This document shows positions 11,874 through 63,777 of a DNA stretch of 64,000 nt, in pieces (positions within the stretch are counted from its first letter, which is position 1; the number at the start of each line of letters is the position of its first letter). A program made the position numbers and the translations under genes. The stretch comes from an uncultured Sulfuricella sp. (GTDB lineage: Bacteria > Pseudomonadota > Gammaproteobacteria > Burkholderiales > Sulfuricellaceae), in the NCBI GenBank assembly GCA_964559825.1, contig CAZLJK010000003.1:74858-138857 (forward strand). The letters run 5' to 3'. A model generated the notes under the pieces. That model was not told where the DNA came from and searched no databases. It was given only the letters and a program-made list of their open reading frames with translations.

Positions 11874-11945
11874 CGTTGATTTTTACGGTTGGCCAGTGAG
11901 ATCCCGAAGCGGCATACCCCTTCGGGCTCCCACTTCAGTTATTAG

Positions 11946-12023
<78 letters not shown>

Positions 12024-12069
12024 AGAGAAGGCATTATAGCCGAAACCTGCGGACTCGGCTAGCTTCAGT

Positions 12070-12754: not shown

Positions 12755-12763
12755 GTCCGTTCC

Positions 12764-41313: not shown

Positions 41314-41468
41314 TGCCACCCACCTAATGATTGTTGTTACCATTTTATCCGGATTTGTCACATGGCAACAGCATACCGAAGAGGAGTCGGCTTGAAATAC
41401 TTCAAAGGGTGACCGGCCAAGCTAGATTCAGGCAACGGGTGGACATATTTTATCGCGCGATCCTGAGA

Positions 41469-41506: not shown

Positions 41507-42166
41507 ATGGCTGCCGTCACCCCCAAAAAGAAACTCTTCGAGAACTTCGCCCTGGTCGCGAAAGCGCTTGCCAGTGCCAATCGGCTTGAATTGCTGGAGG
41601 CTCTTGCACAAGGCGAGCGTGGCGTGGATGGGTTGGCGCAAGCCAGCGGCATGTCGGTAGCCAATACTTCCCACCACCTGCAAATCCTTCGCGGAGGCGG
41701 ACTGGTCCAGTCGCGCAAGGAGGGCACTCAGGTTATCTACAGTTTGACCGACGAAAAGGTGCTTGCACTGTTGGCGGGTATCCGCAATGTGGCTGAACAA
41801 CACTTGGCTGAAGTGGAGCGCATCGTCCGCGAGAACTTTGAGAGCCGTGACAACTTGACTCCCGTCCGTCGAGATGAGCTTCTAGGGTTGGTGAAATCCG
41901 GGGAGGCGATGGTGATTGATGTTCGTCCCTCCGCTGAATATGATGCCGGCCATATTGCAGGGGCGGTCAATATCCCGATTGAATCCCTGCCGGACCGGCT
42001 AAGCCAATTGCCTCACGATCAGGAGATTGTTGCCTACTGCCGCGGCCCTTATTGCATGCTGGCCTTCGATGCGGTTGAACAGCTGCGCCAGCTCGGCTAC
42101 CGTGCCCGCCGACTGGAAGACGGCTTCCCAGAGTGGAAGGTCGATCACCTTCCTGTCGGCCGCTAA
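41507..42166 (+). CDS. ArsR/SmtB transcription factor fused to a rhodanese domain
   Basis: KALASANRLELLEAL...ANTSHHLQIL HTH; rhodanese IDVRP..EYDAGHIAGA and YCRGPYC. Confidence 0.93.
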   Translation: MAAVTPKKKLFENFALVAKALASANRLELLEALAQGERGVDGLAQASGMSVANTSHHLQILRGGGLVQSRKEGTQVIYSLTDEKVLALLAGIRNVAEQHLAEVERIVRENFESRDNLTPVRRDELLGLVKSGEAMVIDVRPSAEYDAGHIAGAVNIPIESLPDRLSQLPHDQEIVAYCRGPYCMLAFDAVEQLRQLGYRARRLEDGFPEWKVDHLPVGR

Positions 42167-42233
42167 TTCCCCTTACAAAAATCGTTCCAACTAGCGTCGA
42201 TCTCCAGGTCGTCTAGCTATCCAGAAAATTAGC

Positions 42234-42288
42234 TTGACGACTTTGCGGTTATTGCCGAATAATATATTCAAATATTCATTTGATTATA
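42234..42288 (+). promoter_or_regulatory. Putative sigma70 promoter plus ArsR operator 2 upstream of the persulfide dioxygenase operon
   Basis: TTGACG (42234)...AATAAT (42258), then ATTCAAA-N6-TTTGATT (42266-42285). Confidence 0.68.
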
Positions 42289-42317
42289 TTATTAACCCGT
42301 AACGCGGAGGAGATAAG

Positions 42318-43055
42318 ATGTTTTTCAGGCAACGTTTAGCCAAGGAAGCCACCCTGTCCTATCTGCTCGGCTGCGGATCATGTGGTGTTTCGGTGGCGGT
42401 GGACCCGGTTGCGGGTGACGAGGATTGGTTTACCGAAGAGGCCGCCAGGCAAAACGTCAAGATCACCCATGTCTTTGACACCCACGTTCATGCCGATCAC
42501 TACTCGGGCGGGCGAGCGCTGGCCGAGAAGTCAGGCGCCCAATACTGCCTGCATGAAGCCAACCAGGGGCGGGTGCAGTTCCCTTTCCATGCGCTTTCGG
42601 ACGGGGAAACCATAGCGGTGGGCAACGTCGCAGTGAAGGTGATGCATACGCCCGGCCATACCCCTGACAGCCTATGCCTGACCGTCACCGACAAGCGCCG
42701 CAGCGCCGAACCCTGGTTCGTGCTCACCGGCGACACCCTGTTCGTGGGCAGCATCGGCCGCCCCGATCTGGCGGGCAAGGGCAGGGAATGGGCGGAGCAG
42801 CTGTTCGACAGCCTGCATGCGCAGCTGATGTCCCTGCCTGATGAAGTGGAGGTTTTTCCCGGCCATACCTCCGGCAGCGTTTGCGGTGCGGGAATTTCCG
42901 GCAAACCTTCCTCCACGGTTGGATTTGAAAAGCGTTTCAATACCGGCCTGAAAATGACCAGCAAGGACGAGTTCGTCAGTTACATTCTGTCCGACATCCC
43001 TCCCCGCCCGGCGGAAATGGAACGCATCGTGGCTGTCAATCTGGGGGCGGCATGA
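42318..43055 (+). CDS. Persulfide dioxygenase-like MBL-fold protein
   Basis: FDTHVHADH, HTPGHTP, LTGDTLFVGSIGRPDL, PGHTSGSVCG. Confidence 0.88.
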   Translation: MFFRQRLAKEATLSYLLGCGSCGVSVAVDPVAGDEDWFTEEAARQNVKITHVFDTHVHADHYSGGRALAEKSGAQYCLHEANQGRVQFPFHALSDGETIAVGNVAVKVMHTPGHTPDSLCLTVTDKRRSAEPWFVLTGDTLFVGSIGRPDLAGKGREWAEQLFDSLHAQLMSLPDEVEVFPGHTSGSVCGAGISGKPSSTVGFEKRFNTGLKMTSKDEFVSYILSDIPPRPAEMERIVAVNLGAA

Positions 43056-44371
43056 GCCACACTTTGCGCAATGGATACCAGGAGTACCGCCATGGTATTC
43101 GCGAAAACTTTGCGCAATTTTCCCACCAGCTGCTTCAGGTATTTCTGGTCGGAATGACCATCGGCATGATGCGTACCGTAGTGCCGGCTCTGGGCGAGAC
43201 CGAATTCGGCGTGCCCAAGGGCTCCTTCATGTTGCTGACCACCTTCGTGGTGGCTTTCGGCTTCGTCAAGGGCACGCTTAATTTCGTTGCCGGACGCCTG
43301 TCCGAGCGCATCGGGCGGCAAAAGGTGTTGCTGCTGGGCTGGGCAGCGGCATTGCCGATCCCGTTCATGATTCTTTATGCGCCCAACTGGAACTGGATTG
43401 TCGCCGCAACCGTGCTGCTGGGCGTGAATCAGGGCCTGACCTGGTCCATGACCCAAACCGCCAAGCTGGACATCACCCGGCCCGATCAAAGAGGCTTTGT
43501 GATCGGACTGAATGAATTCTCCGGCTATGTCGGTCTGGCAGTTGCAGGCATCATCACCGGTTACATGGCGACTGCCTATGGGCCGCGCCATGGGCTGCTG
43601 ATATTTGGCGTTGCGGTGATTATTCTGGCCGCGCTACTCACCATCCTGTGGGTCAAGGACACCTTGCCCTGGGCCAAGGCGGAAGGCGCCAAGCATGCCG
43701 CCGGGCAGTCCACCGGACCGAAACCGCGCTATCCCGCCAACATCGCCGACCAACCCACCACCTGGGAGGTATTCTCCCTCATGTCGTGGCGCGACAAGCG
43801 CATGGCTTCCATCAGCCAGGCAGGCCTGGTGGAGAAATTCGTGGATGCCCTGGTCTGGGTGTTTTATCCGGTTTTTCTTTACGGCCATGGACTATCCCTG
43901 GCCAGCATTGGCTGGGTGATCGGCGTATACGGCTTCGTCTGGGGCGGTTCCCAGTTCTTCACCGGCAAACTCTCCGACCATATCGGCAGGCAGAAGCCCA
44001 TCGTATGGGGCATGTGGTTATGCGGTGCAGGAGTGGCGATGATGCTCCTGGGCCAAGGCGTCGCCTGGTGGTCCTTGTCGGCAGCCGTGTCCGGCCTCGG
44101 CATGGCGCTGCTGTACCCCAACCTGTCAGCAGCCGTATCCGATATCGCCCACCCCAACTGGCGCGGCTCGGCCATCGGCATCTACCGCTTCTGGCGCGAC
44201 CTTGGCTATGGCATTGGGGCCTTGGCGCTAGGGATCGTGGCGAGCTTTAGCGGTGCCATCGAGGAAGCTTTCTGGTTCGTCGCTGTCTGCATGTTCCTCT
44301 CAGGTCTGGTCGTCCGGATTTGGGGAGAAGAAACTCATCCGCGGCTCAACCCCGCGCCCGCAATTAACTAA
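43052..44371 (+). CDS. MFS transporter
   Basis: About 12 hydrophobic segments; GRLSERIGRQK and GKLSDHIGRQK MFS motif A. Confidence 0.93.
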   Translation: MSHTLRNGYQEYRHGIRENFAQFSHQLLQVFLVGMTIGMMRTVVPALGETEFGVPKGSFMLLTTFVVAFGFVKGTLNFVAGRLSERIGRQKVLLLGWAAALPIPFMILYAPNWNWIVAATVLLGVNQGLTWSMTQTAKLDITRPDQRGFVIGLNEFSGYVGLAVAGIITGYMATAYGPRHGLLIFGVAVIILAALLTILWVKDTLPWAKAEGAKHAAGQSTGPKPRYPANIADQPTTWEVFSLMSWRDKRMASISQAGLVEKFVDALVWVFYPVFLYGHGLSLASIGWVIGVYGFVWGGSQFFTGKLSDHIGRQKPIVWGMWLCGAGVAMMLLGQGVAWWSLSAAVSGLGMALLYPNLSAAVSDIAHPNWRGSAIGIYRFWRDLGYGIGALALGIVASFSGAIEEAFWFVAVCMFLSGLVVRIWGEETHPRLNPAPAIN

Positions 44372-44383
44372 CAGGATCCCCTC

Positions 44384-44854
44384 ATGAAACCGGCTCAACT
44401 CATTTCCTCATTACTCCTCGTGGCATGCTCATCCCTGATGCTGCCGACAGTCTCCCTCGCCGCCGACAACGCGGCGGTAAAGGCCATGGGGGAGTATTTC
44501 GAATTCTCCGAATACGGCGGCGCCACCATCCTGCCCGAACAGATCCCGGCCGCAGACTGGAAAAATGTCTACGTGATCGACACCCGCGACGCCGACCAAT
44601 ACAAAAAGGCCCACATTCCCGGCGCCGTGAACATCGACTGGCGGCAAGTTCTCGGCCGCCGTGCCGAACTACCCGAAGACAGAATGGTGCTGGTGTACTG
44701 CAATTCCGGCACGCTCTCCGCTCAGGCCGGCTTGGCGCTGCGCGTGGCGGGCATGGAAAACGTGCGCATCTTGCAGGGCGGATTCAACGAGTGGAAAGCA
44801 AAGGGCGGGTTCGACGCCTACCGGCGCGCAATACGGAGTTCTGGCAAAAAGTAA
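44384..44854 (+). CDS. Exported single-domain rhodanese
   Basis: Signal peptide; IDTRD..QYKKAHIPGA; VLVYCNSGTLS active-site loop. Confidence 0.88.
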   Translation: MKPAQLISSLLLVACSSLMLPTVSLAADNAAVKAMGEYFEFSEYGGATILPEQIPAADWKNVYVIDTRDADQYKKAHIPGAVNIDWRQVLGRRAELPEDRMVLVYCNSGTLSAQAGLALRVAGMENVRILQGGFNEWKAKGGFDAYRRAIRSSGKK

Positions 44855-44899
44855 AGAGCAGGCACATCAAATCCATACCTATAAATCGAGGAGATCGAC

Positions 44900-45340
44900 A
44901 TGTTGTTAAATAAATTCAAATTTTTACTTGCGCTGCTGCTGGCATTCGCGGCGCTTCCCAATGTTTCCTACGCTGGCGGCCCCCCGGGCCAGGCGGTGTT
45001 CAACGGCCAGAAAGTGCTTACCCTGATCGGTCGCGATCCGCCCGGGGTGCGTTGCAACAACAACATGCAGATTGCCGCCGAGTTGGCCAATATTTACAAG
45101 CTGCCGGTTCAGATCATCCCGGTGACATTCGCCGGCGCCGGCGCCAAGGCGCCGGCAGTGTACTACGGCGATCAGTTGGTCGCGGTGGACGAGGGCGAGC
45201 TGAACGGCATGGTGAGCTATGCCGAAATCGCCGATATCCTGGAAATCGAGGGTGTGCCGAAACAGGAGCAGCAGGGGCGCCTGATGGAAATCAAAAAAGA
45301 TTTCGACGGCCTCAAAGCGGCGATCAAGGACGTTAAATAG
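44900..45340 (+). CDS. Exported hypothetical protein with a single Cys (possible thioredoxin-like fold)
   Basis: Signal peptide, GGAG RBS, PPGVRCNNN motif, later KAPAVYYGD; fold is inference. Confidence 0.7.
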   Translation: MLLNKFKFLLALLLAFAALPNVSYAGGPPGQAVFNGQKVLTLIGRDPPGVRCNNNMQIAAELANIYKLPVQIIPVTFAGAGAKAPAVYYGDQLVAVDEGELNGMVSYAEIADILEIEGVPKQEQQGRLMEIKKDFDGLKAAIKDVK

Positions 45341-45370
45341 CGGCCAGCACGGAGATAAGGAGTACAAATA

Positions 45371-45754
45371 ATGCTTACGAGAACGCCGGGAAGGTTTTTG
45401 TTTGTGGTCACAGCGTTTCTGGCGCTGCTGACCAGCCAGGTCTTCAGCGGGGAACTGGCACAACTGAAGGGCAGGATCGTCGGGGAGAAATGCGCGCAAC
45501 TTGGAAAAATCGGCGAGTGCTATCTCAAGTGGGCAAATCCGATGGTGTTCTGGACTGAAGAAGGGGACTACTACGCCATCGACCTGTCCGGCAAGAGTGG
45601 CGTGGCCGAGGAAAAATTCGACGAAGCATTCGGTCAGGAAGTCGAGCTCCAGGGTGAAATTCTGAAAAAAGGGGAGAAGGAGCAGATACGGGTTGCACAA
45701 CTCAAAATTCTGAAACCCGTTGCCGGCAAAGAATTTTTCAAGGGATGACTGTAA
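45371..45754 (+). CDS. Exported small protein, candidate selenoprotein ending KEFFKG-Sec-L (stop at 45748 if UGA is not recoded)
   Basis: Signal peptide; C-x8-C; TGA 45746-45748 followed by CTG TAA and a SECIS-like hairpin. The CDS itself is well supported; Sec read-through is inferred. Confidence 0.7.
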
Positions 45755-45790
45755 ACCCAGATCCCCGGGTGGGATCGAAAAGAGCAGTAA
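45746..45790 (+). promoter_or_regulatory. Putative bacterial SECIS element
   Basis: TGA + 11 nt (CTGTAAACCCA) + 17-nt hairpin GATCCC-CGGGT-GGGATC (45760-45776); lower stem ACTG(T) 45748-52 pairs with (G)CAGT 45784-88. Confidence 0.62.
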
Positions 45791-45837
45791 AAACAGAGCG
45801 TCTCGATATATTCAGCAGTTGGGTGGCAGGAGAAAAC

Positions 45838-46743
45838 ATGAGGTTTGGACATTGGCGATTCCAGCATTTTCTGCTTGCGGCCGTTCTTGCCCTGAGCGGC
45901 GCGGCAGCTTCGGCGGGGCAGAATTATGCCAGGCCCGAGCTTTTGATCGAAACCGAGGAGCTGGCGAAAATTCTCGGTCAGCCCAACGTCAGGCTAATTG
46001 ATGCCGCTGAAGGCGCTGGCTACCAGCGGGCGCATATTGCGGGCGCGGTCAATATTTACTATCTCGATCTCTCCAGGCTCGATGAGCGCAAGAAAAACGG
46101 TTTTCCCCTGAGCCAGGCTGAAGCGGAGAGGGTGTTCGGCGCTGCCGGGATCGATGCCGCCACGCAGGTCATCATCTACGATAGCGGTGAAGGAAATTCT
46201 GCATCGGGAGTGTGGTTTGTGCTCGACTTTTTCGGCCACAAAAACGTCAAGGTGCTAAATGGGGGGTTTCGCAAGTGGCTGAAGGAAAACCGCCTTGTAA
46301 CCCAGGACGTACCCGCACCCGAGAGGAAGAAATTTACCGCAAAGCCTGACGCCGGGCGCATCGTGACGCGAGCCTGGATGGAGAAAAATCTGCAAACCAA
46401 GGAAGCCATGGTGGTGGATACGCGCTCGTTCAATGAGTTTATTGGCAAGGACATGCGCCCAGGCGCCTCGCGTGGCGGACACATCCCCGGCGCGACCCAT
46501 CTCGAATGGACCCGGTTTTCAGACAAGCTGAATAGCTTCAAATCTGCCGAGCAAATCGAAAAGGCACTCAACCAGCGCGGCATCACCAGGGATACCAAGG
46601 TCGTCACCTATTGCCAGTCCGGCATTGGACGCTCTACCGATGTGGCTCTGGCGATGAAACTGATCGGCTACGACAATGTGGTCGAGTATTCAGGTTCATG
46701 GGAAGAGTGGTCGGTCGACCCGCGCTTACCTATCGAACGTTAA
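45838..46743 (+). CDS. Exported two-domain sulfurtransferase (rhodanese/MST family)
   Basis: AGGAG RBS + signal peptide; YQRAHIAGA, RGGHIPGA, VVTYCQSGIGRS, YSGSWEEW. Confidence 0.9.
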   Translation: MRFGHWRFQHFLLAAVLALSGAAASAGQNYARPELLIETEELAKILGQPNVRLIDAAEGAGYQRAHIAGAVNIYYLDLSRLDERKKNGFPLSQAEAERVFGAAGIDAATQVIIYDSGEGNSASGVWFVLDFFGHKNVKVLNGGFRKWLKENRLVTQDVPAPERKKFTAKPDAGRIVTRAWMEKNLQTKEAMVVDTRSFNEFIGKDMRPGASRGGHIPGATHLEWTRFSDKLNSFKSAEQIEKALNQRGITRDTKVVTYCQSGIGRSTDVALAMKLIGYDNVVEYSGSWEEWSVDPRLPIER

Positions 46744-46772
46744 CATGAAACTCGCGAAGCGAGCCTGCGTCC

Positions 46773-46806
46773 CTCTCTCCCTCTGGGAGAGAGTAAGGAG
46801 AGAGGG
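46773..46806. repeat. REP-like palindrome (same style as 10397)
   Basis: CTCTCTCCC-TCT-GGGAGAGAG followed by TAAGGAGAGAGGG. Confidence 0.6.
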
Positions 46807-46819
46807 CAACGGGCAAATC

Positions 46820-47344
46820 ATGAAGTATCCGGTTCACGCGTTGCTGGCGCTGTTCGTCCTGCTTATCCCGGTCATGGCTACTGCGGGAGCGCTCACGCCC
46901 GTCAAGGGTGAGATGCTGGCGAGCGACTTCGTCACGAGGGATTTGGCGGGGCGCACGGTACGCTTCAATACCTTTCAGGGCAAGGTGGTGGTACTCAATT
47001 TCTGGGCCACCTGGTGCTCGAATTGCCGCAAGGAGATGCCCTCGATGGAGGTGCTCCATCAGTCTTATAAAAACCAGGGGCTGGTGGTGCTGGCGGTGTC
47101 GCAGGATCAGGTGAGCGCGCGCACCGTGCAGGCCTATGTGGATGAACTCAAGCTGAGCTTCCCGGTGTGGCACGACCGAGACGGGCTGATCGGCAGGCAG
47201 TACGGCATCTCCGGCGTACCGGTGTCGTATCTGATCGGGGCGGACGGGCGCATCGCCTATCGTGTGACCGGCGATTACGACTGGTTCGGGGCGGAGGCGC
47301 GCGCGGCGGTAGAGACGCTGCTCGCGGCGCGCGCTTCACGTTAA
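46820..47344 (+). CDS. TlpA/ResA-like thiol-disulfide oxidoreductase
   Basis: Signal/TM segment; GKVVVLNFWATWCSNCRKEMP; GVPVSYLIG. Confidence 0.92.
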   Translation: MKYPVHALLALFVLLIPVMATAGALTPVKGEMLASDFVTRDLAGRTVRFNTFQGKVVVLNFWATWCSNCRKEMPSMEVLHQSYKNQGLVVLAVSQDQVSARTVQAYVDELKLSFPVWHDRDGLIGRQYGISGVPVSYLIGADGRIAYRVTGDYDWFGAEARAAVETLLAARASR

Positions 47345-47380
47345 ACAAACCACGTTCAATAAAAAAGGGACGCAAACGCC

Positions 47381-50134: not shown

Positions 50135-50144
50135 GGAAGAAGAA

Positions 50145-52360: not shown

Positions 52361-52407
52361 TCGGGTACTTTGTTTGACGGTGTTACATCTTGAAGGAGGG
52401 ATCAACC

Positions 52408-52638
52408 ATGTGGGGCTATTATGGCAATTATGGTTGGGGGAGCGGCGGCATGGTGCCTATGCTGCTGATGTGGACGGTGATTATTCTGGTTATCGCGGTA
52501 CTGGCGAAGTGGATATTCGGGAAGCCGACCGAAACCACGCATGGCAAGACTGCGCTCGAAATTCTCAAAGAGCGTTATGCGCGGGGTGAGATCGATCGTG
52601 AGGAATTTGATCAAAAGAGGCGGGATATTGGGGGCTGA
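52408..52638 (+). CDS. Small membrane protein with a SHOCT domain
   Basis: MWGYYG..GGM, one TM segment, ALEILKERYARGEIDREEF. Confidence 0.88.
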   Translation: MWGYYGNYGWGSGGMVPMLLMWTVIILVIAVLAKWIFGKPTETTHGKTALEILKERYARGEIDREEFDQKRRDIGG

Positions 52639-52642
52639 GCCC

Positions 52643-54036: not shown

Positions 54037-54040
<4 letters not shown>
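52643..54040 (+). CDS. selA: L-seryl-tRNA(Sec) selenium transferase
   Basis: PVINLTGTLLHTNLGRAPL, VNNNAAA, SRGELVEIG, EVGTTNRTH, PLP lysine motif FSGDKLLGGPQAG. Confidence 0.96.
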
Positions 54041-55943
<1,903 letters not shown>

Positions 55944-55947
<4 letters not shown>

Positions 55948-56453
55948 ACAGGATACTCAAAGGACTGGCCGTCCTGCTGGTGTTTTTTCCGACACTGCTT
56001 CTGGCTACGCCGGCTAAGGAGTCACTCCTCGATCTGGAGGGGCAGCCCCATACGCTCGACGAATATACGGGGCGGGGGAAATGGCTGGTAGTCACGGTCT
56101 GGGCTTCCGATTGCGCGGTGTGCAACCGGGAAATCCACGAGTTGATGGTTTTTCATCAGGCGCACCGGGAAACGGATGCCAGCGTGCTCGGTATTTCAGT
56201 GGATGGGCTTGGCGGCAGGCAAAACGCGTTGGCATTCATCAAACGGCACGGGGTAAACTTCCCCAATCTGCTGGATGATGGAAGCGCATTCAAGGCGATT
56301 TATCTGCGCGCTACCGCTCGCCCCTGGTTCGGAGGGACGCCCATGAACCTGGTCTATGCGCCTTCCGGGGAACTGCTGGCGCGACGCATCGGCCCGTTGG
56401 GCAAGGCCGAACTCGAGGCGTTCATCAAGCAGGCAGGAGAACGAAAGCAATAG
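55944..56453 (+). CDS. TlpA-like exported thiol-disulfide oxidoreductase
   Basis: Signal peptide; GKWLVVTVWASDCAVCNRE; GGTPMNLVY. Confidence 0.88.
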
Positions 56454-56469
56454 CGCGTGTTTTACCCAT

Positions 56470-56566
56470 GGAGAGGATGATCGTCCGGTTGGCATCCGCG
56501 GGCTTCAAACCCGTTGGGAGGCAGGTTTCCTGTCTCTGGTAGGTTCGACTCCTACCCTCTCCACCA
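56470..56566 (+). tRNA. selC: tRNA-Sec (UCA), apparent 7/5 (12-bp) type
   Basis: Anticodon loop CTTCAAA; 9-bp variable arm; GTAGG-TTCGACT-CCTAC T-arm; GGAGAGG/CCTCTCC acceptor stem; ends ACCA; lies next to selAB. Confidence 0.92.
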
Positions 56567-56588
56567 TCAAAAGTAAAAGGAGGACAAC

Positions 56589-56939
56589 ATGAAAACTCTT
56601 TTCATACTCAACGATCCGCCCTACGGCACAGAGCGCAGCTACAACGGCTTCCGCCTGGCGCGGGCGCTGGCGAAGCACGAGGACAACGAAATCCGCGTGT
56701 TCCTGCTGGGCGATGCGGCCCTGTGTGCCAAGGCGGGGCAGAAGGTGCCGGAAGGCTATTACAACATCGAATTCTTCGCTCAGAGCATTTTGAAGCGTGG
56801 CGGCGAAATCGGCGTGTGCGGGGTATGCATGGAAGCGCGGGGTCTGAAAGACGAGGAACTCATCCCCGGTTGTCAGCACAGCACGCTGGAGCACCTGGCC
56901 GAATGGACCATGTGGGCGGAGAAAGTGCTCACTTTCTGA
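56589..56939 (+). CDS. DsrE/YchN-family sulfur relay protein
   Basis: ILNDPPYGTERSYNGFRLA, FLLGDAA, VCGVCMEARG. Confidence 0.9.
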   Translation: MKTLFILNDPPYGTERSYNGFRLARALAKHEDNEIRVFLLGDAALCAKAGQKVPEGYYNIEFFAQSILKRGGEIGVCGVCMEARGLKDEELIPGCQHSTLEHLAEWTMWAEKVLTF

Positions 56940-57255
56940 TTCTGGAAGCCGGCCCGGTATTTCATGCAAAGAAGGGTCCCCGGTTCTGGAAGTTTCCGCC
57001 ATGCGAGCCACCTGGGTTCGCAGGAGGCCTTATAGTTAGGAGCGCCGCCCTCGGCGCGAATTCGGCCACAAATCGCGGCGATGGCCAATCCATTCTCAAC
57101 CCGATTCGCCCGGTTCAGCGACCGGAGCGGCGTACCCTATCGCGCGATTTTAGTCCTGGCAAATAGTACAAATGGACGTTTTCAAGCACGCGCATGTTCA
57201 CTACACTGGCTCTACGGCAATACCCCCAGGCAAACACCAACATAAGGGAGTCAAC

Positions 57256-58212
<957 letters not shown>

Positions 58213-58214
58213 CC

Positions 58215-59180
58215 ATGCTGGAGCGCTTCATTTCCGGGGCCTTTCGCAAGACAGCCACGCAGTTGGCGAATGTTCAGGCCCCCTTGCTCGGCCCCGTCGA
58301 GATTTCGGAGCTGCAGGCCCGGGTGGATGCGCTGGGCGAGCCCAACGGGCAAGTGCCCGAGGTTCACTACCGGCACGCCGGCGATTTCCGCTCCGTTTAT
58401 CTGGGGCCGGGGCTGGATTTCGAAGAATCCAGACTGTACGAGCGGGGAGACGACCTGCGCAGCATGGACTGGCGCACCACTGCCCGCACCGGAAAGCCTT
58501 ACGTCAAGGTGTACCGCGAGGAGCATCATCCCGAGATTCATCTCGTGGTGGATCGCGGCCCGACCATGCGCTTCGGCACCGTCGAGCGGCTCAAGGCGGC
58601 GCAGGCGGCGCGGGTCGCAACGATTGCGGCGTTTGTCGCCATGCGCCGCGGGGCCTGCATCGGCGGCACGCTGGTGCAGCCGGACGGGTTATCGCTGCCG
58701 TGTGCGAGCGGGGACGTGGGAGCCTATCGGCTGGTGGAAGCCGCCGCCTCGGCGGCCCCGCCACTGCCGCATGGCGCGGGGGGATACAGCCTGTGGCAGG
58801 TTCTGGAGCAGATCGCCGTGCGGCTTCAGCGCGGCGCGCGGGTGATTGTGGCGAGCGACTTCCATGGCCTCGACGGGGATTGCGGCGGTGTACTGATGCA
58901 GCTTTCCGCGCGCCATCAACTCATTCCCATCCAGATCCTCGACCGGGTCGAAAGCGAATTGCCGGCTATGGGCCATGCCTGCTTCGAAAACCCGCTGACA
59001 GGGCGCAGCCAGTGGCTGGACACGGGGGCCGCATCCCTGCGCCGGGAATTCGCCCTTCGCGCCGGGGAGGCACGAGCCGCCGCAGACGGCCTGTTTGCCG
59101 CCATGGGGGTAAGACTCGCGCACATCCATGCCGACGATGACCCCTTCCATGTCGTGTTGAAGGCGCTTGGCCATGGCTGA
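58215..59180 (+). CDS. DUF58 family protein
   Basis: GLDFEESRLYERGDDLRSMDWRTTAR...VKVYREE, VVDRGPTMRFG. Confidence 0.93.
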   Translation: MLERFISGAFRKTATQLANVQAPLLGPVEISELQARVDALGEPNGQVPEVHYRHAGDFRSVYLGPGLDFEESRLYERGDDLRSMDWRTTARTGKPYVKVYREEHHPEIHLVVDRGPTMRFGTVERLKAAQAARVATIAAFVAMRRGACIGGTLVQPDGLSLPCASGDVGAYRLVEAAASAAPPLPHGAGGYSLWQVLEQIAVRLQRGARVIVASDFHGLDGDCGGVLMQLSARHQLIPIQILDRVESELPAMGHACFENPLTGRSQWLDTGAASLRREFALRAGEARAAADGLFAAMGVRLAHIHADDDPFHVVLKALGHG

Positions 59181-59595
59181 CGCCGTGCTTGTCGATATTG
59201 TCGAACCGGCGGCGTCTCCCCTTGCGGGGGGCGCGAACTATCCTCTGATTGCTGCCGCCGTCGTCTTGACGATTGTCGTTGCGCTTGTGCTTGTCCGCTA
59301 TGTCCGTCGCCGCCGCGCCACGGCCTGGGTCGCACGCCTGCGCACGGAGCATGAACGGGGCCGGCGCGATGCGCGGGAAACCGCATTTTTGCTGGCGGCC
59401 GGCTTGCGGAGAAAGCTGGGCATGTCCGGGATTAACGCAGGGATTCCGCCCAAGGGAATTGAAGCGGCTGCATGGCGCATGTTCGCCGACCGGCTGTCCG
59501 CACTGCGCTATGAGGCGGGTGCAACCGCGACGCCCGGCGAAATGGCATCCCTGTTCGACTGTACGGAACGCTGGATTGCGGAGGCGCGATGCTGA
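59173..59595 (+). CDS. Small TM protein of MoxR-Bat operons (DUF4381-like)
   Basis: DIVEP + TM segment; position between DUF58 and vWA genes. Confidence 0.65.
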   Translation: MADAVLVDIVEPAASPLAGGANYPLIAAAVVLTIVVALVLVRYVRRRRATAWVARLRTEHERGRRDARETAFLLAAGLRRKLGMSGINAGIPPKGIEAAAWRMFADRLSALRYEAGATATPGEMASLFDCTERWIAEARC

Positions 59596-60563
59596 CCCTG
59601 GCGCAGCCTTTCTGGCTGGCGGCAATCCCGGTGGCCCTATTGGCTTGGTGGCTGGGCCGCCGCACGGCAACGGACGAAAGTGGATTGCCCGCGCTGCGCC
59701 TGGTGCACCCGTCACTCGCGGAAGCGCCGTCCGCAGGGACGGCGCGACAAAAATCCCGGTTTGATCGCATCAGCCACGCCGGCGCAATGGTACTGCTGAT
59801 CCTGGCGCTGGCGCGGCCGCAGTGGGACGGCCCATGGATTCCGCCCCAGCCCGAGGGCAGGGAAATGGTGTTGCTGCTGGATGGCTCCCGCAGCATGAGC
59901 ATCACCGACTTTCAGGTGGACGGCCAGCCGGTGGAACGCTTTTCGGTATTGAAGGGACTGGTCACCCGTTTCGCCCAGGGGCGGCAGGGCGACAGGTTCG
60001 GTGTCATCGTGTTCGGCGAGCGCGCCTATACGCTGCTGCCCCCCACCTTCGACCGCGATCTGGTTTCCTCCATGGTGCAGCGCCTGCCGGTGGGCATCGC
60101 CGGCCAGGACACCGCCATCGGCGAGGCGCTGGCCCTCGCCCTCAAGCAGCTCCGGCAAAACCCCAGGCACCGGCCTGCGCTCATGCTGTTCACCGATGGC
60201 GACAGCACGGCGGGCGCGATTTCACCCGCCGAGGCGGTGGAGGTGGCCGCGCGCATGAAAGTACCCGTCTACGCCATCGACATCGGCACCGATTTGTTCG
60301 GCCACGGAACGCGGCCGGAGGTGGCGGGGAAAGACGCGGTCACACTACCGCAGATAGCTGCTTCAACGGGCGGGCGCTATTACCGCGCCACGTCACCCGA
60401 GGCGCTGAAGTCGGTGGTCGAAGACATCGGCCGGCTCGAAAAAACCGTGACTCCGCCCACGAATCGGCGCGAGCGCCACGAATGGTTCTGGTTGCCGGCG
60501 CTGCTGGCTGCGGCCATGCTGACGGCAGCGCGTCTGGGAAAGATATGGGAGCGGATCGTTTGA
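59589..60563 (+). CDS. vWA domain protein (BatA-like)
   Basis: LILALARPQW, MIDAS LLDGSRSM, GDRFGVIVFG, TAIGEAL, LFTDG. Confidence 0.93.
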   Translation: MLTLAQPFWLAAIPVALLAWWLGRRTATDESGLPALRLVHPSLAEAPSAGTARQKSRFDRISHAGAMVLLILALARPQWDGPWIPPQPEGREMVLLLDGSRSMSITDFQVDGQPVERFSVLKGLVTRFAQGRQGDRFGVIVFGERAYTLLPPTFDRDLVSSMVQRLPVGIAGQDTAIGEALALALKQLRQNPRHRPALMLFTDGDSTAGAISPAEAVEVAARMKVPVYAIDIGTDLFGHGTRPEVAGKDAVTLPQIAASTGGRYYRATSPEALKSVVEDIGRLEKTVTPPTNRRERHEWFWLPALLAAAMLTAARLGKIWERIV

Positions 60564-62257
60564 GCGCTTTCTTCACCCAGCTCGACTGGCAATATCCCTG
60601 GGCGCTGCTGCTGGTATTGCAGCCGGCGGCCATGCGCCTCCTGTTGCGTTTGAAGCGCGGCAGGATGCTCTCCTACGCGAGCCCCGTCTTGCGCCCCTGG
60701 GCCATCGTGACGGATGAAACGGCGGCGAAGAGCCGACGCGGGCGGCTCGACATCCTGTTCTGGCTGCTGCTTTCCCTGGCGCTGGCCGGCCCCCGGCTGC
60801 CTGCCCAGCCCGCTGCCAGCCAGGGTCCACCGCCGCGGCAGGATGTCTCGATGGTGGTGGTGCTCAATGTCGGCGATTCCATGTCCGCTGCCGACGTTGC
60901 GCCGGACCGGCTCAACCGCGCACGGCTCGAACTGCTAGACCTGCTGCGCAAGCTGCGCGGCGAGCGGGTGGGGCTCGTCGTATTTGCCGGCACACCCGGC
61001 CTCGTGATTCCCCCGACGAACGATTATGCCGTTTTCCAGGAATTTCTCTCCCTTTCAGACGGCAAGCTGATCGAGGCCAGGGGAAGCCAGGCCGGCAGCG
61101 CGCTGGCGCTTGCCGCACAATTGTTGAAGGGCGACCAGGCGGTGTCCAGGGGCGTACTGCTGGTGAGCGACGCGGATGAAAGCTTGTTCGGCGGCGAAAC
61201 GGGGGCGGAGGCCCTGGCAGGCGCGAAGGCGGTCAAGGATGCCGGGATTGCCCTGTTCGTGCTCGGGGTGGTTGCGGACGGAACGTCGGATGCGCGCCTG
61301 CGGGAGCTCGCGGCGGCAGGTAAGGGCGCCTATGCGCCGGTGCGCGATGGCGACGGCGAGTGGCGCACGCTGTACGACGACGGCATCGGCGCACTGGCGT
61401 CCCGCTTCCGTCCGCCCCCCTCCCCGGACAACTGGCGGCTTCTCTATCCATGGCTGCTCATTCCCGCGCTTCTCATCCTGGCATTGCGGAATTTCAGGGT
61501 GAGGAAACTGGCACTGCTGGCTGTACCGTTGCTTGCGTTCACTCTGGCGATGCCGGATTCAGCACGTGCGGCGGACAAGCCTGAACAGCTCGCCTGGCAG
61601 GCGTACCGGTCCCGCGACTATGTGCGCGCGCAGTTGCTGTATGCCCAGGTGCCGGGGGTAGCCGGGCGCATGGGCGAGGGAGCGAGCGCCTACCGGCGCA
61701 AGGACTTCGCCTATGCGTCGCAGCAGTTCACCGCGGCGTTGCTGGAAGCGCGCAAGCCTTCCGAAACGGCGGACGCCCTCTTCAACCTGGGCAACGCCCA
61801 GTTCATGGTGGGCCGCTTCGAGACGGCCGTGGAGGCATTCCGGGACGTCCTCCGCTACCGGCCTGATGATCCGGGGGTGCGCGCCAACCTCGAACTGGCC
61901 GTCGCGAAACAGCCAACCAAGGCGCCGCCCGGAGCCGAGGGTATACCGGGACGCCGCGGCCGGGGGGTGGGAGGCGCGACAGGGGAAGAGATCGCGGACA
62001 AGCCGGTCACGATGGAAGAAGAAAAAGACAAAGGGCCGTTGCTGACCCTCGACGAATCCGAATTGGCGCGCAAGGCAGTCGAAGGCAAGAGCCAGGCGTC
62101 AGAGGCGATCAGGCAGGCGGCCGGAAGGCTGAGCGGGGAAATCGCCTACCGGGCCGCAGCAAAAAAACTGGAGCTGGTGGAAGACCAGCCATCGAAACTG
62201 CTGTCCGCTTTGCTCAAATTCGAGCAGGAACGGCGTACCGATAGGAGCACGCAGTAG
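60560..62257 (+). CDS. vWA + TPR protein (BatB/C-like)
   Basis: TTG start overlapping the batA stop; ALAGP, degenerate MIDAS LNVGDSM, TPR (ALFNLGNAQF...ANLELA). Confidence 0.85.
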   Translation: MSAFFTQLDWQYPWALLLVLQPAAMRLLLRLKRGRMLSYASPVLRPWAIVTDETAAKSRRGRLDILFWLLLSLALAGPRLPAQPAASQGPPPRQDVSMVVVLNVGDSMSAADVAPDRLNRARLELLDLLRKLRGERVGLVVFAGTPGLVIPPTNDYAVFQEFLSLSDGKLIEARGSQAGSALALAAQLLKGDQAVSRGVLLVSDADESLFGGETGAEALAGAKAVKDAGIALFVLGVVADGTSDARLRELAAAGKGAYAPVRDGDGEWRTLYDDGIGALASRFRPPPSPDNWRLLYPWLLIPALLILALRNFRVRKLALLAVPLLAFTLAMPDSARAADKPEQLAWQAYRSRDYVRAQLLYAQVPGVAGRMGEGASAYRRKDFAYASQQFTAALLEARKPSETADALFNLGNAQFMVGRFETAVEAFRDVLRYRPDDPGVRANLELAVAKQPTKAPPGAEGIPGRRGRGVGGATGEEIADKPVTMEEEKDKGPLLTLDESELARKAVEGKSQASEAIRQAAGRLSGEIAYRAAAKKLELVEDQPSKLLSALLKFEQERRTDRSTQ

Positions 62258-63777
62258 TGGTCGCGCGAGCCTTCGGCATTCTTTGCCTCGCGCTGATGGC
62301 GCAAATCGCTTGCGCCGCGGGCCTCCGTGTCGAGGCCGACCGTACCGAAATCGCCTTCGGCCAGATGCTAACCGTGACGATCCAGGCCGATGATATCCGG
62401 GACTCCATTCAAAAACTCCCGACGGAAGCCATCGGCCGCGATTTCGAAGTGTTCAGCGTTTCCTACAGCCGCGGCAGCCAAACACGAAGAGGCCGGGAGG
62501 TTGTTCAGCAGCGCTTGGAATTGCAGCTATTCCCACGGCATCTCGGCGTATCCACCATTCCCATCATTGAGGCAGGTGGCAAGAGGACACGCCCTTTGCC
62601 GATCCGGGTAAGCGAATCCGGCTTTGGCGTGCCGAAGGTGATGATACGAAGCGGCGTCGAAGGCGACACTGTGCAACACCGGGAGTCATTACTGTTCGTG
62701 GATGTATACCACGACGGAGGGCCGCTTTTTCGGACGCCGAAGGCGGAGGGCGCGGGGTTCCAGTTGCGGCCGCTACGGGATTCCCAGCGGCAGGAAACCG
62801 TGGCAGGCGAGCGCTATACCGTCACCCGTTTTGCCTGGGGAATGACGCCATTGCGGCCGGGATCCGCCGGCGTCCGCTTTTCACCTCTTGATGCAAGCAA
62901 GTTCGGGGCGCGCCTGCGCTACCCCGTACCGGCTCTCTATGTGCATGCAGCCCCCGTGCCCGGCTATCTGCCGGTCCATGTTCCCGTGGGCCCTCTCGAT
63001 GTGGAGAGCAACGCGCCCATGCATGCCAAAGTCGGGCGCCCTGAGCAATGGACATTGAAAATCAGTGGTCGCGGGCTGAGCCCGGAGGGATTGCGAAAGC
63101 AACTGGGGCGGTTCCAGGATACGCCCCAGTTGCATTTCTATCCGCTGCGGATGGAACTGGTTTCCAATGCCGGGGAAATTCCGCTTGGCCAGACCTTGGT
63201 GGTCACCATTCCTTTCCGGGCACAGAAACAAGGCTCCTTGAAATTGCCTGAAGTACATATTCCGTATTATGACCCAGAGACCGGACTAATCCGGGTTGCC
63301 AGTACGCCTTCCCTTGCAGTGGACGCAGTAGACCCCGTCATGACTTGGGTGTGGCGTGGCGCAGGCGGTGGATTGGTTTTAGTCCTTGCGGTGTGGGCTG
63401 GGCACCTGGTCCGGCCACGCTATCTTGCCTGGCATGCTCGACGCCTACGGCTACGACAATTGGCGTCGAGCAAAACGCCGTGTGCGCTGCTGCGTGCATG
63501 GCGGGCGGGGAAATATGAAACCGAAGGCAGCGAAATCGTCGCAATGATTGAGCGCGCGTGCTACGGCCCGGCTTCTGAGATTGATTTCGAGTGGTTTCGC
63601 CATCAAGCGATGGCATTGGCGCAACAGCGAAAATCGTGTGGCAAGCCGCAGAAAATGCAAGATGAACTACGACGAATCCTGGAGCCCTTCGATACGGGCA
63701 ATTTCACTATTTGCCAACTTTTGCGCCGATGGTTGTCTGCTTTCATCTTCCGATTTCATGACTGGCGTTCGAGTTGA
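62257..63777 (+). CDS. BatD-like protein
   Basis: Signal peptide, beta-rich repeats (VEADRTEIA.GQMLTVTI; VPVGPL; LKLPEVHIPYYDP), TM segment near the C-terminus. Confidence 0.8.
   Translation: MVARAFGILCLALMAQIACAAGLRVEADRTEIAFGQMLTVTIQADDIRDSIQKLPTEAIGRDFEVFSVSYSRGSQTRRGREVVQQRLELQLFPRHLGVSTIPIIEAGGKRTRPLPIRVSESGFGVPKVMIRSGVEGDTVQHRESLLFVDVYHDGGPLFRTPKAEGAGFQLRPLRDSQRQETVAGERYTVTRFAWGMTPLRPGSAGVRFSPLDASKFGARLRYPVPALYVHAAPVPGYLPVHVPVGPLDVESNAPMHAKVGRPEQWTLKISGRGLSPEGLRKQLGRFQDTPQLHFYPLRMELVSNAGEIPLGQTLVVTIPFRAQKQGSLKLPEVHIPYYDPETGLIRVASTPSLAVDAVDPVMTWVWRGAGGGLVLVLAVWAGHLVRPRYLAWHARRLRLRQLASSKTPCALLRAWRAGKYETEGSEIVAMIERACYGPASEIDFEWFRHQAMALAQQRKSCGKPQKMQDELRRILEPFDTGNFTICQLLRRWLSAFIFRFHDWRSS

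Follow-up and report, generated by a model that had tools for sequence, protein, structure and literature searches.

[quoted passage not shown] One gene of the module encodes a small exported protein, SecP. As judged from comparative sequence analysis, SecP is a selenoprotein of an undescribed family and the UGA at position 45746 is read as selenocysteine. The Mo enzyme and this selenoprotein with its Gly-Sec-Leu end always travel together, and in the window they have their own Sec genes. The arrangement suggests a carrier-arm route, so far undescribed, for the redox chemistry of sulfur (or selenium).

Genes of the locus

The original prediction described a system of about 22 kb. All genes named therein were found by sequence inspection and profile searches, all of them co-oriented on the plus strand, and the genes for tRNA-Sec, SelA and SelB indeed lie downstream of those of a type II DMSO-reductase-family enzyme. 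The features are:

41507-42166, +, ArsR/SmtB-family regulator-rhodanese fusion, BigR/TsoR-like (PF01022, PF00581)
42318-43055, +, cytoplasmic metallo-beta-lactamase-fold protein, persulfide-dioxygenase (PDO)/GloB-like (PF00753)
43052-44371, +, MFS transporter (PF07690, 164 bits)
44384-44854, +, exported single-domain rhodanese Rhd1 (PF00581, 75 bits; signal peptide from the translation)
44900-45340, +, exported monothiol thioredoxin-fold protein TrxL146 (AF2 model, motif conservation)
45371-45754, +, SecP, predicted selenoprotein with signal peptide (TGA-CTN-stop in 18/18 loci; Cys homologues; SECIS)
45760-45776, +, putative SECIS hairpin GAUCCC-CGGGU-GGGAUC, 11 nt past the UGA, beyond the true stop codon
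45838-46743, +, exported two-domain rhodanese Rhd2 (PF00581 twice, 131 bits)
46817-47344, +, periplasmic TlpA/ResA-like thiol-disulfide oxidoreductase (AhpC-TSA/Redoxin; ResA 118 bits)
47381-50134, +, Mo-bisPGD catalytic alpha subunit (MoA), type II DMSO reductase family (TIGR03479, 988.8 bits)
50145-51305, +, four-cluster Fe-S beta subunit (MoB; TIGR03478, 527.7 bits vs a cut-off of 480.7)
51299-52360, +, gamma subunit (MoC), EB_dh haem-b domain and c-type cytochrome domain (PF09459, 90.5 bits; PF00034)
52390-52638, +, small membrane protein with SHOCT domain (PF09851, 42 bits)
52643-54040, +, SelA, selenocysteine synthase of the module-linked lineage (PF03841, 486 bits)
54037-55947, +, SelB, Sec-specific elongation factor (GTP_EFTU, SelB beta-barrel, SelB wing 2 and wing 3)
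55944-56453, +, second exported TlpA-like protein (AhpC-TSA/Redoxin)
56470-56566, +, selC, tRNA-Sec with anticodon UCA (ARAGORN; Rfam RF01852, 54.8 bits vs a gathering score of 47)
56589-56939, +, cytoplasmic DsrE/YchN-like protein (PF02635, 90 bits)
57172-63777, +, Bat/MoxR-type cluster of MoxR, DUF58, DUF4381, VWA, VWA-TPR and BatD (profile matches)

Two gene starts were revised. The listed open reading frame 45745-46743 was rejected as over-extended, the start of the rhodanese being the signal peptide at 45838; what had been read as an ATGA overlap at 45745 is instead the Sec codon of the preceding gene together with its 3' SECIS region. SelA more likely starts at 52643 than at the listed position 52541. 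Promoter and terminator scans gave matches no commoner than chance.

The alpha subunit has a Tat signal and the FS0 motif H66-x3-C-x3-C, and its Asp205 takes the place of the Mo-ligand Asp in the alignment with PcrA. Where PcrA has the gate residues F164, Y165 and W167, the alpha subunit has P, S and A, as seen in the pairwise alignment only. As originally noted, the gene 47381-50134 is free of in-frame UGA; it has no other in-frame stop codon either. The gamma subunit carries a Sec signal peptide and a CVGCH motif and matches TIGR03477 with 129.8 bits, below the cut-off of 169.85; its cytochrome c domain fits either direction of the reaction. [quoted passage not shown]

Upstream, the regulator-rhodanese fusion matches NF033788 with 80 bits, and BigR (46 bits) and TsoR (55 bits) both below the family cut-offs; about half of 18 related loci have a homologue no more than 10 kb away. 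The metallo-beta-lactamase-fold protein has weak GloB and Blh matches below their cut-offs. This protein and the MFS transporter have counterparts in locus L017 with 67% and 77% identity, respectively. In L017-L022 and L028, the surroundings of the module include homologues of the DsrE-like protein (58-64% identity).

Of the predicted 22 kb system, the conserved module comprises 44900-56939, and the MoxR-BatD genes (about 6.6 kb) fall outside it. They adjoin the module only in the Sulfuricellaceae loci, that is, in the window, in genome G018 and, inverted, in L013, and are absent from its vicinity elsewhere. A gap of 232 nt lies between, together with a terminator-like site at 56912-56932 from a scan that performed no better than chance. 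In these comparisons of gene order the Bat/MoxR-type cluster is a neighbour of the module. Two further observations concern the surroundings: in G018, a chlorate-reductase-like operon close to ClrA is inserted beside the module, and the chlorate reductase (clr) genes of Ideonella are also flanked by an ArsR gene and a SHOCT gene, of which the SHOCT gene follows them.

SecP and the companion proteins

A UGA with a SECIS element had been predicted in the small exported reading frame, and its conservation is far beyond chance. In the window, the UGA at 45746-45748 (Sec126) is followed by Leu127 (45749-45751) and TAA (45752-45754), and the predicted tail is KEFFKG-Sec126-Leu127. The codon after KEFFKG is TGA in all 18 SecP loci. 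The following Leu codon is CTG in 13, CTA in three, CTC in one and CTT in one of them, and the second stop is TAA in seven, TAG in two and TGA in nine. Among the matches listed, 119 of 120 SecP homologues are cut at FFK(G/A). A minority of SecP relatives end with Gly-Cys-Leu and not with Gly-Sec-Leu; the distant homologues have Cys for Sec, with the ends FFKGCL, SKSCL and SKACL.

Across the SecP loci the hairpin starts 11-13 nt past the UGA. In its stem 96.2% of the cells are paired and five of the six pairs have compensatory changes. The covariation score is 0.546 vs 0.218 in shuffles, and none of 500 shuffles reached the observed value. These alignments show the hairpin beyond the true stop as the putative signal that directs Sec insertion at UGA 45746. 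Taken together, the invariant UGA, the translated Leu codon with synonymous changes, the covarying SECIS and the Cys homologues ending in GCL argue that SecP is a real selenoprotein.

The AF2 model of SecP is a small OB-like beta-barrel with a disordered C-terminal tail; two internal cysteines, C41 and C50, are conserved in the OB domain. Profile searches of Pfam and NCBIfam gave zero matches for SecP and for TrxL146, and a SecP-like family is absent from Pfam, NCBIfam r20 and the 119-family table of a 2026 review.

TrxL146 is modelled by AF2 with a pLDDT of 81 and its top structural matches are thioredoxins. Its match to TsoC is weak (16.4 bits, below the cut-off of 45). Within the invariant motif PPxxR-C52-NxN, the alignment has TGA (Sec) at the position of Cys52 in L027 and L029, and the module usually includes such a monothiol thioredoxin-fold protein, with either Cys or Sec. 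The active-site cysteines of the rhodaneses are located in CNSGTLS (Rhd1) and CQSGIGR (Rhd2). The first TlpA, with the motif WATWCSNC, keeps its position directly upstream of the alpha subunit; the second has WASDCAVC and the same position in G018. Related loci encode a membrane-anchored rhodanese, unrelated to SecP, which also has a Gly-Sec-Leu end (Rhd-GUL). Seven loci carry this rhodanese as a second G-U-L protein, and a YeeE/TsuA-like transporter.

Conservation of the module and lineage of the Sec genes

The module is found in Beta-, Gamma- and Alphaproteobacteria and in Nitrospirota, and the order SecP, Rhd2, (YeeE, Rhd-GUL), TlpA, MoA, MoB, MoC is kept across lineages. Every sufficiently long locus has SecP in synteny with the rhodanese, TlpA and the Mo alpha, beta and gamma genes, and Rhd2 is the next gene after SecP or CysP. 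Locus L058, a Cys form, keeps this order without sel genes nearby. When 151 genomes were sampled for orthologues with at least 77% identity, SecP and MoA occurred in the identical three genomes, in line with the proposed co-occurrence of the alpha clade and the small-protein family. On gene order, SecP, the two-domain rhodanese and TlpA are shown as obligate companions of the Mo enzyme. A phylogeny of the alpha subunit had been proposed as a check; in it the module-linked MoAs form one clade (100/99), which has a stem of 1.11 and is separate from ClrA. The predicted linkage of the alpha subunit extends to rhodaneses in every sufficiently long locus; sel genes lie behind the Mo genes in only about four of nine Sec-type loci.

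The SelA tree unites the sequences from the window, from G018 (contig C42) and from the alphaproteobacterial locus L024 in one clade (100/100), which has a long branch and excludes 17 native SelAs of the order. This phylogeny shows selA-selB-selC as an apparently separate lineage which travels with the module. G018 carries both Sec systems and its native selA adjoins an FdhA gene with one TGA; G000 has only the sel copy of the module and no Sec-FdhA. SelD of the window's genome is the Cys form. In this 203-contig assembly no Sec-formate dehydrogenase was detected, nor any other selenoprotein by a heuristic scan that is nearly blind to C-terminal Sec proteins without G-U-L. No other client of the sel genes was detected in the genome.

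Proposed mechanism and alternatives

The central idea of the original prediction, that the Sec machinery serves a small periplasmic selenoprotein acting with the Mo enzyme and rhodaneses, is supported by the evidence on SecP, by synteny and co-occurrence and by the SelA lineage. The chemistry of the module, that is, sulfur or selenium and oxidation or reduction, we infer. By analogy, the Sec tail is probably an arm which presents sulfane sulfur to the Mo enzyme, similar to the GGCGG arm of SoxY or the C-terminal Cys arm of DsrC, although neither protein is related to SecP in sequence or fold. We suggest the following steps. A rhodanese would put sulfane sulfur, for example from thiosulfate, on the SecP arm as a selenopersulfide. 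The loaded arm could then enter the substrate funnel of the Mo enzyme, where small residues replace the aromatic gate of PcrA, and oxygen-atom transfer would oxidise the bound sulfur. Electrons could leave through the Fe-S beta subunit and haem b to the fused cytochrome c. A reset of the arm, with resolution of Se-S and S-S dead ends, might fall to TlpA and the monothiol thioredoxin-fold protein, and the ArsR-rhodanese, the PDO-like enzyme and the DsrE-like protein might link sulfane sulfur to expression and to the cytoplasmic side. The operon has a sulfur context (three rhodaneses, the BigR-like regulator, the PDO-like enzyme and the DsrE-like protein), and the hosts bear names of sulfur oxidisers (Sulfuricella, Sulfurimicrobium, Sulfuritalea, Acidiferrobacterales). 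A SoxB-like hydrolase for release of the oxidised product is not present in the module. This reading as a whole, a module with a Sec-arm sulfur-carrier route through the Mo enzyme, we believe and doubt in about equal measure.

The Mo enzyme could instead be a periplasmic reductase of a chalcogen or halogen oxyanion (selenate, selenite, tellurite, chlorate), with SecP, the thioredoxin-fold protein, the rhodaneses and the TlpAs handling the product. A reactive product would be trapped and further reduced, for example selenite as Se-Se/Se-S adduct, and YeeE/YedE-like and DsrE-like proteins would hand selenium or sulfur inward; in a variant, the SecP set scavenges oxidants, as do the methionine-rich peptides of perchlorate reducers. 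The closest characterised relatives of the alpha subunit are indeed oxyanion reductases (ClrA 40% identity, PcrA 475 bits), but the linked MoA clade stands well apart from ClrA and the PcrA gate residues are not conserved. Rhd2 weakly resembles ExtH, a rhodanese of selenite/tellurite operons (55.8 bits vs a cut-off of 200), and the YeeE-like gene weakly matches YedE/FdhT; every ExtH and YedE match, however, is far below the family cut-offs. The near-ClrA operon of G018 and the ArsR and SHOCT genes shared with the Ideonella clr flanks would suit a reductase, whereas chlorite dismutase is absent, regulators and accessory genes of the persulfide/thiosulfate type accompany the enzyme and most hosts are sulfur oxidisers. 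We regard a reductive role as rather unlikely.

SecP could also be an electron shuttle or redox activator, the Mo enzyme acting in the same pathway on a free small molecule. As in animal thioredoxin reductase with its GCUG tail, the Sec arm would relay reducing equivalents between the TlpA/thioredoxin-fold proteins and a small disulfide, polysulfide or thiosulfate. The Sec residue beside the C-terminus on a disordered tail, the two conserved cysteines of the OB domain and the presence of two TlpAs and a monothiol protein with Sec/Cys variation all agree with a shuttle. Such a role leaves unexplained why SecP and the Mo-enzyme clade never separate and why a second, unrelated protein of the same loci has the G-U-L end, which points to a shared docking site. 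In our view the chance that SecP is only a shuttle is small.

Finally, it is very improbable, and close to refuted, that translation simply stops at the UGA, that the hairpin is there for termination or for stabilising the mRNA, and that the sel genes are meant for selenoproteins elsewhere: hairpins after stop codons are common, the promoter and terminator scans did not exceed chance and a client gene could be missing since the genome is a draft, yet the hairpin has no T-run, Sec-FdhA is missing here while relatives have it beside their native selA, all 25 first stops (SecP and Rhd-GUL pooled) are TGA with a variable second stop, the SecP Leu codon changes only synonymously, the Cys homologues of both SecP and Rhd-GUL are longer by exactly Cys-Leu, and the SelA lineage follows the module.

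Gene layout and the protein encoded at 45371

We derived the gene layout of the window from an ORF listing with translation and from Pfam and NCBIfam scans.

Genes of the window between 41507 and 63777
41507-42166, + strand, ArsR-rhodanese
42318-43055, + strand, PDO-like protein of the MBL fold
43052-44371, + strand, MFS transporter
44384-44854, + strand, exported rhodanese (Rhd1)
44900-45340, + strand, small exported protein without family match (TrxL146)
45371-45748, + strand, small exported protein without family match (SecP)
true start 45838, + strand, two-domain rhodanese (Rhd2)
46817-47344, + strand, TlpA
47381-50134, + strand, alpha subunit (MoA) of type II DMSO-reductase family, TIGR03479, 988.8 bits
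50145-51305, + strand, beta subunit (MoB), TIGR03478, 527.7 bits
51299-52360, + strand, gamma subunit (MoC), EB_dh and cytochrome c
52390-52638, + strand, SHOCT protein
3′ of the SHOCT gene, + strand, SelA, SelB, second TlpA and DsrE-like protein
56470-56566, + strand, tRNA-Sec (ARAGORN and Rfam)
57172-63777, + strand, MoxR, DUF58, DUF4381, VWA, VWA-TPR and BatD, full Bat/MoxR domain set

This is the gene content first predicted, and all of it lies on the plus strand. We refer to the genes for TrxL146, SecP, Rhd2, TlpA and MoABC, here accompanied by selA, selB and selC, as the module. The MoxR-BatD genes had also been counted as members of the system. We dropped them because they have the domain set of the known Bat/MoxR aerotolerance-type operon (MoxR, DUF58, BatA, BatB-TPR, BatD), adjoin the module solely in Sulfuricellaceae loci and are inverted in the related locus L013. 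A terminator-like site and a gap of 232 nt set them apart from the DsrE gene. The promoter and terminator matches found by scanning did not exceed chance, and a composition profile found no island signal. Directly upstream of 41507, on the minus strand (37280-41361), lie genes for a hybrid histidine kinase (PAS, HisKA, HATPase, receiver; 1011 aa) and an NMT1/THI5-like periplasmic binding protein; their linkage to the module was not seen in other loci.

Read with UGA as selenocysteine (Sec), the frame at 45371 ends ...KEFFKG-U-L-stop. A search of 5.8 billion proteins returned 140 relatives of SecP, and among the matches listed 119 of 120 end exactly at ...FFK[G/A], so that the best-conserved motif of the family is found at its apparent C-terminus. 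We surveyed the codons at 17 genome loci and in the window, all 18 being MAGs, with no cultured host among them. The codon 3′ of Gly is TGA in 18 of 18. It is followed in every case by a Leu codon that varies synonymously (CTG 13, CTA 3, CTC 1, CTT 1) and then by a variable true stop (TAA 7, TAG 2, TGA 9). A 6-bp hairpin begins 11-13 nt 3′ of the UGA, and its sequence varies with the pairing kept (GAUCCC/GGGAUC, GGCCCC/GGGGCC, AACCCC/GGGGUU). In a model-based alignment 96.2% of the cells are paired, five of the six pairs show double (compensatory) changes, and covariation scores 0.546 where shuffles give 0.218, with none of 500 shuffles reaching the observed score; these statistics lean towards structure because the alignment was fitted to the structure model. 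A profile search of 1.84 billion representatives further found distant relatives ending ...FFKGCL (P0124, P0133, P0135, P0138, P0139) or ...SKSCL/...SKACL (P0134, P0142), in which Cys is aligned with the UGA position and Leu is the last residue. In locus L058, which encodes such a Cys form (CysP), the codons at the tail are TGC CTT TGA. The genes selA, selB, selC and selD are all found in the window's genome. Judged from its sequence, SecP is a bacterial selenoprotein by the standard criteria, and the original prediction of a UGA and a SECIS element at this gene is borne out by the conserved TGA, the covarying hairpin and the Cys homologues ending GCL.

No Pfam or NCBIfam (release 20, U read as Cys for NCBIfam) model was found for SecP, the family is absent from the 119-family table of a May 2026 review (PMC13188914), and none of the public gene calls examined reaches beyond the UGA. 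AF2 predicts a small beta-barrel (pLDDT 75.9), in which C41 and C50 are invariant, and leaves the last 12 residues unstructured. The Foldseek matches were weak and of the OB fold (YgiW, RPA), and no PDB sequence matched the SecP profile. SecP resembles the 'star' selenoproteins (animal thioredoxin reductase with GCUG, UXX-star, KCU-star) in having Sec one to three residues from the C-terminus, a position which places the bacterial SECIS outside the reading frame. UXX-star and KCU-star are among the bacterial families listed in the review, and the NCBIfam library includes the models it cites (PMC13188914). SecP differs from both in matching no NCBIfam model, in its domain, in its motif (G-U-L) and in being periplasmic. 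One homologue from a metagenome (P0059) ends ...QEFFKGGM without a stop after KG, which may reflect a TGA to GGA change or a sequencing error.

Conservation of the module and further Sec/Cys proteins

When the related loci were searched with the window's proteins (tblastn), the order TrxL146, SecP, Rhd2, (YeeE-like, Rhd-GUL), TlpA, MoA, MoB, MoC was found, where Rhd-GUL is a rhodanese-like protein described below. The hosts are by name Sulfurimicrobium, Sulfuricella, Sulfuricellaceae, Hydrogenophilales and Burkholderiales, and further Acidiferrobacterales, Rhodospirillaceae, Hyphomicrobiales, Nitrospirota and Thermodesulfovibrionales. The rhodanese and TlpA genes always lie between SecP/CysP and the Mo enzyme genes. 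The Cys form of the module in L058 comprises TrxL146 (50% identity), CysP, TlpA, rhodanese, alpha (56%), beta and gamma (EB_dh and cytochrome c), and no sel genes were found near it. A rhodanese adjoins CysP on two short Cys-form contigs; the contigs of P0124, P0134 and P0139 are too short for the full context. In an even sample of the order SecP is present in 3 of 151 genomes, and the same three genomes, with no others, have alpha orthologues (identity at least 77%), so the co-occurrence expected of the alpha clade and the 45371 family holds in this sample. In the Thermodesulfovibrionales locus L027 the alpha gene (11311-14074) matches as two pieces in different frames with a junction near 12807-12821, a frameshift that reflects either an assembly error or a pseudogene.

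In seven loci a SECIS covariance model also detected a site between a YeeE/TsuA-like gene (PF04143) and TlpA. This second site belongs to Rhd-GUL (L013:12685-13134; also L017, L019, L021, L022, L024 and L029), which follows the YeeE/TsuA-like gene between Rhd2 and TlpA. Rhd-GUL is membrane-anchored, has a rhodanese-like domain without catalytic Cys and ends ...RRGR[A/P]G-UGA-Leu-stop, with a hairpin of its own (CCCUCC-GGCG-GGAGGG). Its 63 homologues include 59 that are truncated at ...RRGR[PA]G or a similar end and two that finish with ...GCL. Rhd-GUL and YeeE genes are absent from the window. On these features Rhd-GUL appears to be a second undescribed selenoprotein, and comparison of its tail with that of SecP shows that a Gly-Sec/Cys-Leu C-terminus is common to two unrelated proteins of the system.

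TrxL146 is predicted to have a thioredoxin fold (AF2, pLDDT 81.2), with Cys52 opening the helix 50-66; in Foldseek thioredoxins lead with a probability of about 1.0 yet an E of about 2e-3. Its one invariant Cys lies in the motif PPxxR-C-NxN. In L027 (9748-9750) and L029 (1594-1596) TGA replaces this Cys codon (window 45053-45055, Cys52), and these two distant loci share the same 23 nt from the TGA onward (TGAAACAAGAACATGGCCATGGC). We regard the two proteins as candidate Sec forms. Up to three unannotated selenoprotein families would be added in this way, an OB-fold G-U-L protein, a G-U-L rhodanese and a Sec-form monothiol thioredoxin-fold protein; the public gene calls examined end at UGA for all three.

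The Tso neighbourhood (TsoA/B/C/R; Haft & Tolstoy 2025, as listed in PMC13188914) has a similar theme, combining a regulator of the ArsR type with rhodanese and thiol-disulfide domains and with a small selenoprotein that bears the motif NEPxGxxU (TsoC). TrxL146 has the same spacing, [N/R][E/D]PPxxR[C/U]. The Tso models score far under their cut-offs (TsoC 16.4 against 45 for TrxL146, TsoR 54.8 against 115, TsoB at most 35 against 805), and the NCBIfam scan found neither TsoA nor TsoB in the window.

The molybdoenzyme and its Sec machinery

The alpha subunit exceeds the cut-off of TIGR03479 (988.8 against 984.75 bits) and has a TAT_signal match, the FS0 motif H66CSNCQGNC and an Asp205 that aligns with the Asp Mo ligand of PcrA. 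As originally predicted it lacks an in-frame UGA, no internal stop being present in 47381-50134. The beta subunit scores 527.7 bits with the four-cluster model TIGR03478 (cut-off 480.7), and gamma scores 90.5 bits with PF09459 (cut-off 33.3) and 129.8 bits with TIGR03477, below the cut-off of 169.85. The enzyme is therefore like ClrABC, SerABC, DdhABC and PcrAB in its Tat-exported alpha with an H-x3-C-x3-C FS0 motif and Asp ligand, its four-cluster beta and its EB_dh haem-b gamma. It differs in falling into a clade apart from ClrA, in the fusion of cytochrome c to gamma and in not keeping the PcrA gate, whose aromatic residues align with Pro, Ser and Ala in a pairwise alignment. PcrA is the best solved relative (475 bits); Ideonella ClrA is 40% identical and lies in a separate clade. 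The alphas linked to SecP or CysP form one clade (100/99) with a long stem, apart from Ideonella ClrA and haloarchaeal NarG, in a small tree without SerA, DdhA and EbdA. A reading as nitrite oxidoreductase was dropped since anammox NxrA gave only 125 bits and Nitrotoga NXR falls in another lineage. Domain scans of the window genes found no assembly chaperone of the NarJ/SerD/ClrD type, whereas ClrD is present in the Ideonella operon. The constant linkage to SecP/CysP, rhodanese and TlpA is seen in none of the characterised operons of the ClrABC/SerABC/DdhABC/PcrAB group. A new clade of type II DMSO reductases is thereby defined, common in sulfur oxidisers of groundwater and sediment, and MAG surveys probably mislabel it as chlorate, selenate or DMS enzymes.

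On the Ideonella dechloratans plasmid (L062, 12558-13180), genes for a separate c-type cytochrome, MobB, an ArsR/SmtB regulator and a SHOCT-domain protein come after the chlorate reductase cluster; these flanking genes echo the fused cytochrome c, ArsR-rhodanese and SHOCT gene (52390-52638) of the window. Genome G018, of the same genus as the window, carries the module on contig C31 (Sulfuricella sp. MAG_156). There, at 6325-11294 of L039, between Rhd1 and ArsR-rhodanese, a second type II Mo operon replaces the PDO-MFS genes, of which a 21-residue PDO fragment is left. Its alpha is nearly identical to Ideonella ClrA in the tree, which suggests that a chlorate-reduction element was inserted beside the module.

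SelA is present in 40 of the 151 genomes, and the window's SelA has the lowest score of the full-length copies. In three genomes a native selA has a formate dehydrogenase alpha gene (FdhA) with one in-frame TGA at a distance of 3-25 kb.

Native selA and 1-TGA FdhA
G018, contig C21, 66393-73318
G076, contig C70, 157249-174595
G145, contig C1, 384188-410289

G018 also has a module copy and thus two selA genes; its module order MoB, MoC, SelA, SelB, TlpA2, tRNA-Sec, DsrE, MoxR... is that of the window. In a SelA tree the copies of the window, of the G018 module and of L024, an alphaproteobacterial MAG with SelA 3′ of MoC, group together as one clade (100/100; branch of 0.86). The 17 native SelAs of the order in the tree, among them the second copy of G018 and that of G076, also of the same genus, fall outside this clade. 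The window, G018, L024 and L021 (SelB) have sel genes directly 3′ of the Mo genes, but L017, L022, L028, L029 and G145 do not. Genome G125 lacks selA, Sec-FdhA and SecP altogether.

The window's genome has the module sel genes only, with a Cys-type SelD. No FdhA above the cut-off or with an internal stop was found in its 203 contigs. This genome either lost or never had the native sel set. Across the whole genome the SECIS covariance model found the SecP site alone, the next match (C154, E = 0.43) being a non-coding hairpin, and only SecP matched a pattern of TGA-CTN-stop with hairpin. A hexamer scan, which scored how coding-like the two flanks of every TGA are, gave 33 strict and 80 Cys-motif candidates, which are gene junctions, transposase and REP-like sequence; five were read through and then rejected. 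False read-through candidates also came from ...AEDAEDAEE... repeats after several genes (C74:5561, C9:49072, C64:10861), probably REP-like intergenic repeats. The module-linked SelA lineage, the absence of Sec-FdhA and the lack of other clients in these heuristic scans of a 203-contig assembly argue for the original prediction that the sel genes serve the small selenoprotein. As in selABC-Sec-formate dehydrogenase clusters the Sec machinery is encoded beside its client, but the client here is a 100-residue accessory protein and not the Mo catalytic subunit, and the machinery belongs to a second, horizontally moving lineage, unlike the native selA beside FdhA. A Sec-insertion apparatus thus appears to be kept for a small accessory protein; it would move between classes together with its client and can coexist with the native Sec system of the host.

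A possible carrier-arm mechanism

In SoxY a C-terminal arm, GGCGG, carries sulfur for SoxAX, for SoxB and for SoxCD, a molybdoenzyme, and DsrC puts into DsrAB a C-terminal arm with a next-to-last Cys. In the module a type II Mo enzyme of a distinct clade is likewise in strict partnership with a small protein whose invariant reactive group is on a flexible tail, next to the C-terminus. The likeness to SoxY/SoxCD and DsrC/DsrAB, a small protein presenting a reactive chalcogen on a flexible arm to a redox enzyme, is by analogy only. We found no relation in sequence or fold between SecP, which is OB-like (AF2) and without Pfam or NCBIfam match, and SoxY or DsrC. The reactive residue is Sec instead of Cys, the partner is a bis-PGD type II DMSO reductase instead of a sulfite-oxidase-fold or sirohaem enzyme, and the module is without the SoxB-like hydrolase of Sox.

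By this analogy we suggest a scheme of four steps. A rhodanese would charge the Sec arm with sulfane sulfur. The arm would then go into the Mo funnel, where Asp205 would be the Mo ligand. The arm-bound sulfur could be oxidised there, with the electrons leaving via beta and then the haem b/cytochrome c gamma subunit. Finally, TlpA and the monothiol thioredoxin-fold protein might reset the arm. The nearest characterised relatives of the Mo enzyme are reductases, and it might instead act in a selenate/selenite-type pathway. We consider this unlikely, since three rhodaneses, a BigR-like regulator, a PDO-like enzyme and a DsrE-like protein, together with YeeE in the relatives and the sulfur-oxidiser hosts, favour sulfur over oxyanion respiration. 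A more far-reaching reading, which we rate as less likely than not, is a previously unknown periplasmic pathway of sulfur (or selenium) oxidation, in which Sec on the swinging Gly-Sec-Leu arm of a small OB-fold protein would be the covalent substrate carrier for a bis-PGD molybdoenzyme, the cassette being mobile together with its own SelA, SelB and tRNA-Sec. In many organisms a membrane-anchored protein resembling rhodaneses would bear such a Sec as well, and the pathway would be the Sec counterpart of SoxY/SoxCD or DsrC/DsrAB. Selenium carrier-arm chemistry at a molybdenum site is a testable hypothesis.

Type II DMSO reductases, selenoproteins and the linkage of sel genes to a client are known kinds of things. 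The families of selenoproteins and the clade of the enzyme are new. So are the obligatory pairing between a bis-PGD enzyme and proteins carrying a C-terminal Sec/Cys arm, and a second, mobile lineage of Sec machinery that is dedicated to an accessory protein.

Several loci have, downstream of the Mo genes, genes for a rubrerythrin/ferritin-like protein, an Fe-S carrier ATPase of the Mrp/ApbC type and another DsrE-like protein (L017:18467-20225; L022:18547-20203; L021:18708-19532).
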